From a bacterium (GTDB lineage: Bacteria > Bacillota_I > Bacilli_A > RFN20 > CAG-826), in contig CAVDQJ010000006.1 in assembly GCA_963611005.1 (NCBI GenBank), positions 1 to 29,178 on the forward strand: 29,178 nt of DNA, read 5' to 3'. Below the pieces are notes generated by a model that had not been told where the DNA came from, made no database searches, and saw only the letters and a program-made list of their open reading frames with translations. Both the position numbers and the translations under genes were made by a program. Numbering within the stretch: position 1 is the first letter of the stretch; the number at the start of each line of letters is the position of its first letter. Below are positions 16,665 through 19,525 of this stretch, piece after piece.

Positions 16665-17250
16665 TTATAAAAAAGCCGTAACTGTTTTAAAAAATGGTGG
16701 ATTGGTTGCTTTTCCTACTGAAACTGTTTTTGGTCTTGGTTGTTTAGCAAGTAAAGAAGAATGTTTTAATCAATTATGTAAAGTTAAAAAAAGACCCGCT
16801 GATAAGCCTTTCACATTGATGTGCTCATCGATTGAACAAGCTAAGCCTTATGTTGAAATCGATGAAACTGCATTAAAAATTATAAAGAAGTTTTTTCCAG
16901 GTCAATTAACTTTGATATTAAAAGCTAAAGAAGGAATTAAAGATTATTTAGATTTAAAAACTGGTTATATTGGAATAAGAATTCCTGATGATGAATTTGT
17001 ATTAAATATGATAAGCGAAATTGGTGAACCATTACTCGTAACTAGTGCTAATATTTCTGGTCAACCTGTTGCATTAAATGATGAAGATGCACTTAAATAT
17101 TTTAAAGATAAAATAGATATAATTGTTAAAGGTCATGGATATAGCAATGTACCTTCAACAGTTGTAATGCTTAAAGATAATAAATTAAATGTTTTAAGAC
17201 AAGGAATTATTAAAAAAGAACAATTGGAGGATGCAATAAATGAAAAATAA
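16639..17250 (+). CDS. tsaC: L-threonylcarbamoyladenylate synthase (YrdC domain only)
   Basis: VAFPTETVFGL, K.RP..KP, PGQLTLIL, GIRIPD and TSANISG. SD AGGAGG at 16631-16636 may favour ATG 16642. Confidence 0.93.
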   Translation: MMLIISKCDYKKAVTVLKNGGLVAFPTETVFGLGCLASKEECFNQLCKVKKRPADKPFTLMCSSIEQAKPYVEIDETALKIIKKFFPGQLTLILKAKEGIKDYLDLKTGYIGIRIPDDEFVLNMISEIGEPLLVTSANISGQPVALNDEDALKYFKDKIDIIVKGHGYSNVPSTVVMLKDNKLNVLRQGIIKKEQLEDAINEK

Positions 17251-17692
17251 TTTAAAAATTGTTATTGGTTCAGATCATGGTGGATTTGAATATAAAACCG
17301 AAATAATTAAAGAATTAAAGAAAGATGGATATGAAGTTATAGATGTAGGTACAAATAGTAAAGATAGTTGTAATTATGCTGAATTTGCTATTAAAGCTGC
17401 ATTAAAAGTATCATCAAAAGAAGCTGATTATGGAATATTAATTTGTAATTCTGGTGAAGGAGTTGCAATAGCAGCTAACAAAGTTAAAAATGTTAGATGT
17501 GGTATCGGATACAATGATGAAGTCGCTATGTTAATAAAACAACACAATAATGCAAATATGATATCATTTGGTGCTCATTTTACTTCATTAGATGATGTTA
17601 TTAAAAGAATTAAAATATTCTTAAATACAGAATTTGAAGGCGGAAGACACGAGACTCGTGTTAATACAATTATAAATTTTGAAAATAAATAA
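17240..17692 (+). CDS. rpiB: RpiB/LacA/LacB-family sugar-phosphate isomerase (ribose-5-phosphate isomerase B)
   Basis: IGSDHGG, GILICNSGEG, AANKV, HNNAN and FEGGRH..RV. Confidence 0.92.
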   Translation: MKNNLKIVIGSDHGGFEYKTEIIKELKKDGYEVIDVGTNSKDSCNYAEFAIKAALKVSSKEADYGILICNSGEGVAIAANKVKNVRCGIGYNDEVAMLIKQHNNANMISFGAHFTSLDDVIKRIKIFLNTEFEGGRHETRVNTIINFENK

Positions 17693-17705
17693 AATTTTAT
17701 ATGTT

Positions 17706-17751
17706 AAAACCTCCTCAAACTTAACGTCTTGTTAAGTGAAGGAGGTTTTTT
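17706..17751 (+). terminator. Terminator-like hairpin after rpiB whose 3' arm contains the comFA Shine-Dalgarno
   Basis: AAAACCTCCT (17706-15) pairs with AGGAGGTTTT (17740-49). Inner stem ACTTAAC/GTTAAGT with a GTCTT loop. T6 run at 17746-17751. Confidence 0.8.
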
Positions 17752-18897
17752 ATTACAAAGTTTAAGTGTGAGTTATGTGGTAATGAAGATTTAAAATATG
17801 TTGGATATAAAAACAATAAGCCTTATTGTAGAAAGTGCATTTCTTTTAAAGGTGAATCTGCGGATTTAAATATTAGTTTTATAAAAAAACAAAGTAAAGC
17901 TTTTCTAAAATATGGATTAAGTGAAGATCAAGAAAGAATATCTAACCAACTTTTAGATAATTATAAAAACCACATAAACACACTTGTTTACGCAGTATGT
18001 GGAGCAGGCAAGACCGAACTTGTTTTTAAAGTTATTGAGTATTCCCTATCAAAGAAATTTAAAGTAGGTTTTGCTGTTCCACGTAAAGACGTTGTTATTG
18101 AATTAGCTGTTAGATTTAAAAATACTTTTAAGAATAATTTGATTACTTCATTATATGGCGGGAATACTTCAAACTTATATGGTGATATTATATGTTTAAC
18201 AACCCATCAATTATATAGATACAATAATTATTTTGACTTGTTGATTTTAGATGAAATTGATGCTTTTCCGTATAAAGGAAATGATGTATTAAATTCTTTG
18301 TTTAAAAGAAGTGTAAAAGGAAACTTTATATTAATGTCAGCTACACCTGATGACTTAACATTAAAAGAATTTTCAAAAGGTAATAATAGAATTGTTGAAT
18401 TATTTACTAGATATCATAAAAAGCCTATCCCTGTTCCTCAAATTAAATTGAGTTTCTCAATATTTAAATATTTATTCTTAATAAGAAAATTAAAATATTA
18501 TATTAAAAATGACATGCAATGTTTTGTGTTTACACCAACTATTGACGAATCGAAAATGGTGTTTAATATAGTTTCAAAATTTGTTAAAAAAGGAAATTAC
18601 GTTAACTCAAAAAGAGATAATCGAGCTAAAATAATCCAAGATTTTAGAGATAAAAAATATATGTATTTAATAACTACAGCAGTTTTAGAAAGAGGAGTGA
18701 CTGTTAAAAATTTACAAGTGATAATATTTGATGCAGATAGTGAAATTTATAATAAATACGCATTGCTTCAAATTTCTGGTAGAGTTGGAAGAGTTATAGG
18801 TTATGAAAAAGGTGAAGTTTATTACTTGTGTTCAAGAAAAACTAAAGCAATGGAAGACGCAATTGAATTCACAAAAAAAGCAAACTCAAATTTGTAA
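17752..18897 (+). CDS. comFA: ComFA-like DEAD/DEAH-box helicase/translocase (competence DNA uptake); probable non-canonical ATT start
   Basis: The frame is open from the TGA at 17737-39. Upstream of the called ORF it encodes FKCELCG...PYCRKC (Zn site), Walker A YAVCGAGKTE and AVPRKDVVIEL. It continues with ILDEIDAFPY, MSATP, TTAVLERGVT and QISGRVGR. There is no in-frame ATG/GTG/TTG before 18139. Confidence 0.88.
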   Translation: MTKFKCELCGNEDLKYVGYKNNKPYCRKCISFKGESADLNISFIKKQSKAFLKYGLSEDQERISNQLLDNYKNHINTLVYAVCGAGKTELVFKVIEYSLSKKFKVGFAVPRKDVVIELAVRFKNTFKNNLITSLYGGNTSNLYGDIICLTTHQLYRYNNYFDLLILDEIDAFPYKGNDVLNSLFKRSVKGNFILMSATPDDLTLKEFSKGNNRIVELFTRYHKKPIPVPQIKLSFSIFKYLFLIRKLKYYIKNDMQCFVFTPTIDESKMVFNIVSKFVKKGNYVNSKRDNRAKIIQDFRDKKYMYLITTAVLERGVTVKNLQVIIFDADSEIYNKYALLQISGRVGRVIGYEKGEVYYLCSRKTKAMEDAIEFTKKANSNL

Positions 18898-19525
18898 AGT
18901 TTGTTTCAATGAAATCCATACTGATTCTTTTCATTCTTTAATTAATAATTTAAGCATTTGTTCGAGATGTCTTAAAAATTATGAACCAAAATTTAAAGAA
19001 TTTAAGTTTAATGGAATAGATGTTTTATCAGTTTATGAATACAAAGATTTAATAAAAGAGAAACTATTTGTTTTTAAAGGGTGTTTTGATTATGAGTTAT
19101 TTTCAACTTTTTTTAGCCAATATTCATTTGAATTAAATTTAAAATACAAGGGATATAATATAGTTTTTATACCTTCTAATAAACATAGTGATGCACAAAG
19201 AGGATTTAATCATGTTGTTGAAATGTTTAACTTTTTAAAGCTTAAAAGGCTTGATATTCTTAAAAAAGTTGGCGATGATAAACAAGCAAATAATAGCTAT
19301 AGAAAAAGAAAAGAAGCGGGAAAACATATAGTTTTAAGTAAAAGAGTTGATTTAACAAATAAAAAAATATTAATAGTTGATGATGTTATTACAACAGGCT
19401 CAACATTGTATGCTGCAATTAATGAAATTAGAAAACTAAATCCAAAGACAATAAAAGCGCTAGTTATGTCAAAAAGAGAGTTCGATACAAGATTCAATAA
19501 AAGCAAAATTGATATTATTCAATAA
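18803..19525 (+). CDS. comFC: ComFC-family protein (Zn ribbon plus phosphoribosyltransferase-like domain); start uncertain
   Basis: CKVC...CSRC, RGFNHV and ILIVDDVITTGSTL. Directly after comFA. Confidence 0.88.
   Translation: MKKVKFITCVQEKLKQWKTQLNSQKKQTQICKVCFNEIHTDSFHSLINNLSICSRCLKNYEPKFKEFKFNGIDVLSVYEYKDLIKEKLFVFKGCFDYELFSTFFSQYSFELNLKYKGYNIVFIPSNKHSDAQRGFNHVVEMFNFLKLKRLDILKKVGDDKQANNSYRKRKEAGKHIVLSKRVDLTNKKILIVDDVITTGSTLYAAINEIRKLNPKTIKALVMSKREFDTRFNKSKIDIIQ

Follow-up and report, generated by a model that had tools for sequence, protein, structure and literature searches.

The stretch analysed here, the 29,178-nt contig CAVDQJ010000006.1 of assembly GCA_963611005.1 (henceforth the window), raises the question of how comFA, a gene for DNA uptake in competence, is translated and regulated when its reading frame offers no ATG, GTG or TTG for the whole of the conserved N-terminal part of the protein. 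The window is contig C6 of a 0.97-Mb assembly (27% GC, 165 contigs, 89% complete; genome label G000) from an uncultured small-genome member of the Bacilli. The account that we favour, to which comparison of related sequences leads us to give a probability of about 0.6, combines a weak ATT start for comFA with an intrinsic terminator of the upstream rpiB-like gene and a competence promoter placed in the loop of the terminator hairpin.

The comFA start codon

The features on which the question of the start turns are as follows:

17737-17739, plus strand: in-frame TGA closing the comFA frame upstream
17739-17746, plus strand: Shine-Dalgarno (SD) sequence AAGGAGGT, forming the 3' arm of a hairpin (17740-49); its duplex with a generic anti-SD has a computed energy of -12.8 kcal/mol
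17746-17751, plus strand: T6 tract, putative terminator tail and SD-start spacer in one
17752-17754, plus strand: ATT, the likely comFA initiation codon and the sole near-cognate codon in frame after the SD
17752-18897, plus strand: comFA, 381 codons plus stop, with a four-cysteine motif (residues 6-29), Walker A (residues 81-88) and DEAD, ResIII and Helicase_C matches
18139-18141, plus strand: TTG, the first canonical in-frame start, with an SD duplex of only -0.4 kcal/mol

From 17740 up to its stop codon (18895-97) the comFA frame is uninterrupted, and 17740-18138 contains no in-frame ATG, GTG or TTG; the first such codon, TTG 18139, lies 129 codons past ATT 17752, which is itself the only in-frame ATT, ATA, ATC or CTG within 17740-17800 (the first 20 codons). 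Restricted to ATG, GTG and TTG, the open reading frame (ORF) measures 252 codons from TTG 18139, and with the starts of NCBI table 11 it measures 381 codons from ATT 17752. A preliminary description of this DNA had drawn the same anatomy, with a TGA at 17737, no canonical start for about 129 codons, and a zinc motif and Walker A upstream of the TTG, and it holds base for base. The part of the protein encoded upstream of the TTG contains four cysteines (C6, C9, C26, C29; CxxC-N16-CxxC), which are kept in all aligned relatives and correspond to the N-terminal four-cysteine metal-binding motif of ComFA reportedly described by Chilton and colleagues in 2017, as well as the Walker A motif AVCGAGKT (residues 81-88). 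The helicase core is recovered by the Pfam models DEAD (E 3.7e-12), ResIII (E 5e-12) and Helicase_C (E 1e-13), all above cut-off, and the translation also carries a DEID motif; no NCBIfam equivalog exists for ComFA, the best matches in that collection (UvrB, RecG, PriA) all lying far below cut-off, and a PDB sequence search with the protein returned generic superfamily 2 (SF2) helicases only (XPB, UvrB, RecG). The gene is followed by one for a ComF-type phosphoribosyltransferase and then by secA, the usual comFA-comFC neighbourhood, and the SF2 helicase core, the four-cysteine motif and the place directly upstream of comFC, the three features by which we recognise ComFA, are all present in the predicted product. 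According to an excerpt of PMC9005727, ComFA acts as an ATPase that depends on DNA and is needed for DNA uptake in Bacillus subtilis and Streptococcus pneumoniae.

Two other readings of the frame were discarded. If TGA is read as tryptophan (genetic code 4), the frame opens only to TAA 17722-24, still without a canonical start, and this code was dropped because SecA and other genes are intact under table 11. A GTG at 17736-38 is out of frame, and the equivalent GTG in relatives is in other frames or cut off by stops.

The homologous codon was followed through a census of 59 comFA loci from 58 of the 60 genomes of the genus that were searched (one genome with two copies), made up of 24 and 2 loci from first searches and 33 fetched later; at each locus every possible in-frame start from the upstream stop as far as the first cysteine was listed with the strength of the SD before it. 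The start column reads ATA in 19 loci, ATT in 17, ATC in 4, ATG in 15, and GTG and TTG in 2 each, that is, ATT, ATA or ATC in 40/59 and a canonical codon in 19/59. This tally is the choice of a script (raw: ATA 20, ATT 17, ATC 4, ATG 14, GTG 2, TTG 2) with L074 re-read by eye as ATG (GGAGG-aata-ATG), and the start of L098 is ambiguous between ATT and ATA. The nearest clade has ATT (the window's own genome), ATA (G073, whose ComFA shares 92% amino-acid identity with that of the window over the whole protein), ATA (G007) and ATC (G069) and no ATG; outside the genus, five loci from other families of the order start with ATG and one with GTG. Homology of the column is borne out by a near-identical series of leaders that carries GGGGAATTTTTT followed by different codons, namely ATA, GTG, ATA, ATG, ATG and ATA (L005, L006, L007, L008, L083, L103). 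A tree of 32 full-length ComFA proteins requires the start to have switched at least seven times between the ATT/ATA/ATC and the ATG/GTG/TTG class, and well-supported branches force five of these switches.

The N-terminal part of comFA is under purifying selection: over codons 2-129 dN/dS is 0.059 and 0.146, the same as in the rest of the gene, the values for whole comFA being 0.049, 0.152 and 0.160 with three relatives. Comparison of the 5' regions of related comFA genes, which the preliminary description had suggested as a check, leaves the nearest relatives without ATG at the start column and finds the hairpin recurring with compensating changes; its proposal of initiation at ATT gains strong support from this comparison. 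With no canonical start for the conserved N-terminus, an SD at working distance (GGAGG, 6 nt, ATT) and a codon of the same kind in most of the genus, we consider it very probable that comFA is translated from ATT 17752. One copy in the census, that of G010 (L011, contig C36), has an in-frame TGA and an open frame of 273 codons as against about 380, and may be a broken copy or an assembly error.

The GGAGG of AAGGAGGT ends at 17745, followed by six T (17746-51) and the ATT, and its anti-SD duplex is among the strongest in the genome. The distance from the upstream stop to the first canonical start has a median of 4 codons over 602 frames of at least 150 codons and amounts to 133 codons in comFA; frames with a still longer start-less stretch turned out on inspection to be antisense low-complexity frames, N-containing stretches or a broken gene. 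A strong SD was found for 163 of 687 non-overlapped ORFs of at least 100 codons, and in 24 of them the strongest SD precedes an ATT, ATA or ATC upstream of the first canonical start. In 23 of these 24 an ATG follows one or two codons later and has the SD in common; comFA alone is left. One further clean case came from a looser scan, namely infC, with AAGGAGG, 8 nt and ATT:

L031 about 2062-2064 (G000 contig C80:9112-9114), minus strand: apparent ATT start of infC, the next in-frame ATG lying 12 codons downstream without an SD

Because the genome scans leave only infC and comFA, an ATT-type start looks specific, within this genome, to initiation factor 3 (IF3) and ComFA.

The genes infC (IF3) and pcnB of Escherichia coli have a conserved non-canonical start that limits translation. 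Comparable cases appear in excerpts of two further reports: infC (AUA), cvfC1 (AUU) and ccpN (AUA) of Staphylococcus aureus, which stand behind extended SDs and reach about 10% of AUG expression (PMC13009471), and ebpA of Enterococcus faecalis, which starts at ATT with lowered expression (PMC4447247). The comFA arrangement is like these in placing AUU or AUA behind a strong SD, and the genome's own infC apparently starts at ATT too; it is unlike the infC-type cases in that the comFA codon drifts among ATT, ATA and ATC across the genus, and a dependence on IF3 would here be an extrapolation. The arrangement suggests that ComFA dosage is under tight control, and with it a competence gene would join the very few bacterial genes whose non-canonical start is conserved; our look at the literature found no report of such a start in comFA or in any other gene of competence. 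A gene caller that accepts ATG, GTG and TTG only picks TTG 18139 and so loses the metal-binding motif and Walker A. The same would happen in about two-thirds of the species of the genus, and therefore competence surveys of gut metagenomes would score ComFA there as truncated or broken.

The hairpin over the Shine-Dalgarno sequence

Two further features lie upstream of the SD:

17240-17692, plus strand: rpiB-like gene (ribose-5-phosphate isomerase B), the last gene upstream; Pfam LacAB_rpiB, E 2.5e-50; stop TAA at 17690-92
17706-17715, plus strand: 5' hairpin arm with the anti-SD, AAAACCTCCT, paired by RNAfold with 17740-49

The hairpin starts 14 nt past the rpiB stop and has the T6 tract directly 3' of it. 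Its outer 10-bp stem joins AAAACCTCCT (17706-15, with the anti-SD ACCTCCT at 17709-15) to AGGAGGTTTT (17740-49), its inner 7-bp stem joins 17719-25 to 17731-37, and the loop is long (24 nt with the inner stem). The fold has a computed energy of -23.6 kcal/mol as against -11.4 +/- 2.8 for shuffled sequences (z -4.4; 0/200 shuffles as stable), and the RNAfold structure bears out the earlier statement that the SD is paired with an anti-SD in a hairpin followed by T6.

In a MAFFT alignment of 32 leaders the 5' arms fall out of register as the loop lengths differ, and for this reason arm tables, an exact-complement test and a swap control took the place of aligned covariation. Across the genus there are at least ten different compensating arm pairs, which include CCTCC/GGAGG, CCTTCTTC/GAAGGAGG, CCCC/GGGG, CTCC/GGAG, CTCCC/GGGAG, TTCCTC/GAGGAA, CCCTCC/GGAGGG and ACACCC/GGGTGT, while at six loci without an SD the pairs are GCGACT/AGTCGC or CACTAC/GTAGTG. 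The exact complement of the leader's own SD 6-mer is found within 50 nt in 14 of the 51 SD-bearing leaders, as against 3.4% in leaders with a different SD core. Cognate arm-SD duplexes average -12.5 kcal/mol and swapped ones -9.2, a difference that is indicative only, the sequences being related. A search of Rfam gave two chance-level matches only (E 2.4 and 5.1).

An rpiB-like C-terminus was seen upstream of comFA in at least 42 of the 59 loci by a script motif search that misses some, and the stem with a T-tract after a stop codon has the sequence form of an intrinsic terminator. The anti-SD arm is missing where another terminator lies further upstream (e.g., L011, L012, L022, L093, L099). 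Because it stands just after the upstream stop, has a T-tract behind it and loses its arm where another terminator takes up a position further upstream, we regard the hairpin as the likely intrinsic terminator of the upstream rpiB unit, with a 3' arm formed by the SD or, where there is no SD, by the first codons of comFA. The occlusion of the SD on read-through RNA we read as a side effect of this terminator. The conservation of the hairpin, which the preliminary description had named as a check, is borne out by the compensating arm pairs; its idea that the hairpin serves to damp comFA fits less well, as the hairpin looks more like a terminator or insulator of the upstream gene and six of the stems come without an SD. 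The locus is like other terminators of compact genomes that overlap the signals of the next gene in having a stem and T-tract after a stop, with the 3' arm doubling as SD and the T-tract as spacer. It is unlike them in its long loop with an inner stem and a promoter-like box, and it does not reflect a general habit of its genome, where an exact 6-mer anti-SD is found in the 50 nt upstream for none of 110 other genes led by GGAGG-N4-9-ATG.

The conserved box in the hairpin loop

The loop and its upstream flank contain two conserved blocks:

17724-17731, plus strand: box core ACGTCTTG at the hairpin apex; the extended box to the SD covers 17724-17745
17703-17709, plus strand: -35-like block GTTAAAA, overlapping the A-run of the 5' arm, as deduced from the box alignment

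The box is conserved across the genus while the arms vary; its form is (A/G)C(G/A)T(T)CTTGTATAGTGA, and the SD comes next. ACGTCTTG occurs 19 times in the genome to which the window belongs, as against 5 for the reversed control word, and 5 of the 19 copies have the order box, 6-8 nt, SD and start, in front of comFA, recA, dprA, a 60-aa ORF followed by radC, and a 326-aa ORF. A search of the genus with an 18-nt pattern at up to 2 mismatches yielded 31 hits in 20 of the 60 genomes, as against 3 for the reversed control. The genes behind the box across the genus are comFA, comEA(-comEC-holA), dprA, recA, the small ORF with radC, rpsF-ssb-rpsR, and several proteins of unknown families, the downstream genes having been identified with Pfam and NCBIfam as ComEA (SLBB + HHH_3), DprA, RecA (TIGR02012, 495 bits), RadC and S6-SSB-S18. 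The same gene set makes up late competence regulons in other Bacilli.

An alignment of 63 box instances anchored on CTTG (62 of them distinct; one, L022, anchored on the wrong CTTG) brings out a second block 19-25 nt upstream of CTTG, typically G(G/A/T)ATAA(T/A)TT, with A at -21 in 90% and G at -25 in 50% of the 62 distinct instances. The box is not tied to the ribosome-binding site, because it lies about 150 nt upstream of the rpsF-ssb start in G062 (L051, before L051:1083-1367, minus strand), separated from it by a long leader, and about 50 nt upstream of the dprA start in G024. Six comFA leaders lack an SD and have ATG 9-11 nt past the C of CTTG; two further SD-less leader types (four records) have GTG 8 nt past the C of CTTA. 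The SD-less comFA leaders are L112-L115, L013, L015, L018, L078, L089 and L094, in which the GTG or ATG stands inside or right after the box. When folded from 17734, the RNA (67 nt) reaches -7.4 kcal/mol (z -1.2) with a centroid that leaves the SD unpaired; when folded from 17695, it retains the hairpin at -26.3 kcal/mol.

The preliminary description had suggested that comFA could be switched on by a promoter firing within the hairpin, by an antiterminator or by a small RNA (sRNA). The first of these finds indirect support in the two-block element, which is conserved in the loop and common to recA, dprA, comEA, ssb and radC loci, and we lean towards a competence promoter nested in the terminator loop. 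Such an element would give a testable handle on the competence regulon (recA, dprA, comEA-comEC, ssb, radC and small proteins of no known family) of an uncultured lineage without a known regulator, and the locus would serve as a clean and testable example of how a terminator hairpin can house a promoter.

Some of the box-bearing genes are of note in their own right. The 60-aa ORF with one transmembrane helix lies between valS and radC (L056:1526-1705; G000 C116:7133-7312), belongs to no Pfam or NCBIfam family, and has, besides the box, an anti-SD arm of its own (CTCCTT/AAGGAG); G007, G069 and G073 also have this ORF together with the box. The 326-aa ORF (L104:97-1077; G000 C59:6296-7276) is membrane-anchored and of no known family; its ATG is 15 nt past the GGAGG and in-frame ATT codons lie nearer to the SD, so that it may have another unusual start. 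At L063 (G018 C2) a terminator-like hairpin comes no more than about 45 nt after the box and no ORF lies between them, so that the same element may drive a small RNA there.

The proposed mechanism and its rivals

We propose that ribosomes would start comFA at the AUU behind the strong SD and that ComFA would thereby be kept at a low level, by analogy with the S. aureus and E. faecalis cases; as with infC, such a weak codon would render ComFA IF3-sensitive. The hairpin (17706-17751) would end rpiB transcripts, and read-through RNA would carry comFA with its SD buried. The box and the -35-like block would form a competence-specific promoter shared with the recA, dprA, comEA-comEC, ssb and radC loci, with a divergent sigma-H/ComX-like factor as its plausible reader. 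Given the position of ATG or GTG in the SD-less variants and the spacing of the two blocks, the transcript would start at about 17736-17740, so that the core would occupy about -13 to -6 and the upstream block would stand near -35. A transcript from this promoter would lack the 5' arm, and with it the hairpin and termination, leaving the SD free; the SD-less comFA forms would be leaderless mRNAs, and in the SD-bearing forms the SD would come near the 5' end. A bolder version appears doubtful to us as a whole: that selection holds ComFA on AUU, AUA or AUC throughout the genus, so that it would be the cell's only protein, IF3 apart, to be throttled in translation and gated by IF3, with a hitherto undescribed competence promoter, read by a divergent SigH/ComX-like sigma factor, nested in a terminator hairpin that ends rpiB, silences read-through and vanishes when the promoter fires.

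A candidate for the reader of the box is a 218-aa ORF (L121:5-661, minus strand, contig C117), which lies directly downstream of rlmB and matches the sigma-70/extracytoplasmic function (ECF) superfamily over its whole length. We take sigH to lie close downstream of rlmB in Bacillus and Staphylococcus, which makes this position a lead and not a test. A Sigma70_r2 search of the genome gave one clear hit, the primary sigma factor, and a second sigma fragment stands at a contig end (L119:1471-1707), followed by a 454-aa membrane protein. With regard to the remaining competence machinery, the three nearest relatives all have ComEC (G007, G069 and G073, in the last split over contig ends), and Pfam detects it in 14 of 24 genomes from the genus; the window's own genome has mnmA and then holA (C129:2534-2715, on a short contig), where relatives have comEA-comEC-holA (L108, L109).

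Several results weigh against this account. Regarding the hairpin, a simple terminator scan reported none here, its loop limit of 3-8 nt excluding an interrupted hairpin; and an association of ATT, ATA and ATC starts with the hairpin, which the median duplex energies would suggest (-14.3 kcal/mol in such leaders as against -8.7 in canonical ones), is not established once relatedness is allowed for (5 independent pairs, median p 0.5). As for the promoter, a sigma-70 consensus scan found none on the plus strand here, and the -35-like block is AT-rich in a genome of 27% GC, with only two columns that stand out. The box, in relatives GCGTTCTTG or GCATTCTTG, i.e., (G/A)C(G/A)T(T)CTTG, differs from the cin-box and the sigma-H -10 consensus, only the leading (T)ACG being like the cin-box, and that in some genomes. 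If a TATAGT-like hexamer after CTTG is taken as the -10 of a sigma-A promoter, the start site would fall inside the SD, and this option was set aside. The 218-aa sigma-like ORF scores 30 bits against a cut-off of 42.9 and lies below every curated cut-off. Finally, ComEC (by Pfam), ComEA (by tblastn with the proteins of two relatives) and a ComGA-type ATPase above cut-off were not found in the 89%-complete assembly. An ECF reading of the box, with CGTC as -10 and AAC as -35, was also rejected, there being no AAC at the right distance in the five putative promoters of the window's own genome.

The alternative that survives best, though we hold it to be unlikely, has the box acting at the RNA level or as an operator: an sRNA, an RNA-binding protein or a repressor on the DNA would recognise the loop and so turn translation or transcription of the entire competence set on or off, and comFA transcripts would begin upstream and have their SD locked. 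In many cases the box stands between the anti-SD arm and the SD, and its TCTT can pair with the SD's AAGG. In the inner stem around GTCTT, compensating changes set the window's genome (CTTAAC/GTTAAG) apart from G007 (TATAC/GTATA), as would fit an RNA stem or a dyad operator, and the core of the recA box is a perfect 12-bp palindrome. A precedent, in an excerpt of PMC1807966, is the Listeria sRNA RliE, which base-pairs around the SD and start of three com mRNAs, those of comEA and comFA among them. Like the RliE system, the box is a shared sequence around the SD of several com operons that would serve common control; unlike in that system, the analysis turned up no sRNA partner, and some copies of the box lie well away from start codons, as at dprA of G024 and rpsF-ssb of G062. 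Moreover, many box genes, such as dprA and recA in the window's own genome, lack an anti-SD arm, the second block at a fixed upstream distance fits a two-block promoter, and variants without an SD have their ATG or GTG immediately behind the box; the leader fits no Rfam family, and the 31 pattern hits included no conspicuous antisense copy of the box.

Somewhat less probable still is that the hairpin is only the rpiB terminator and that the ATT reflects near-neutral drift behind a strong SD, without any selected regulatory meaning. All six codons do occur at the start column with the repeated switches noted above, comFA SDs are strong (typically -8 to -13 kcal/mol), and the association of ATT, ATA and ATC with the hairpin is not significant. 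However, no other of the 687 ORFs shows the pattern save infC, where a weak start is known to be functional; the prevalence of ATT, ATA and ATC (40/59), all three in a nearest clade devoid of ATG, is unexpected if ATG were free to fix; and other box-bearing genes use ATG.

That the ATT is an assembly or sequencing error or a start loss silencing comFA, leaving a dead gene or a truncated protein from TTG 18139, a fallback of the preliminary description for which the fragmentation of this metagenome-assembled genome (165 contigs, 89% completeness) and the failure to find ComEC and ComEA might speak, can be dismissed as very improbable, because the nearest relatives, assembled independently, show ATA, ATA and ATC in the column (as part of the 40/59), dN/dS over codons 2-129 is 0.06-0.15, the reading frame is intact over 381 codons, and the TTG has no SD and would lose the cysteine motif and Walker A.

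Returning to the account with a weak start, a terminator and a nested competence promoter, its elements have counterparts elsewhere: translation-throttling non-canonical starts, SigH/ComX-type regulons and terminators overlapping downstream signals are all known. Regulons of the second kind are the cin-box regulon that ComX (sigma-X) controls in streptococci and the competence regulon of SigH in Staphylococcus aureus. The present system would be like both in having one short element near the transcription start common to comEA-comEC, comFA-comFC, dprA, recA, ssb and radC; the small divergent sigma-70-family candidate beside rlmB may be a further parallel. It is unlike the ComX regulon in that the box core ACGTCTTG is not the cin-box TACGAATA, and in that the sigma candidate falls below family cut-offs. 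The box and the gene set of this lineage appear to be undescribed, no literature search having been made for them.

The gene downstream of comFA is the following:

18803-19525, plus strand: comFC (ComF family, phosphoribosyltransferase fold); Pfam Pribosyltran; NCBIfam TIGR00201 at 61 bits, below the cut-off of 233

Its start has three candidates in the same frame, none with an obvious SD: ATG 18803 (overlapping comFA by 95 nt), TTG 18863, and ATT 18890, which directly precedes a CxxC motif.

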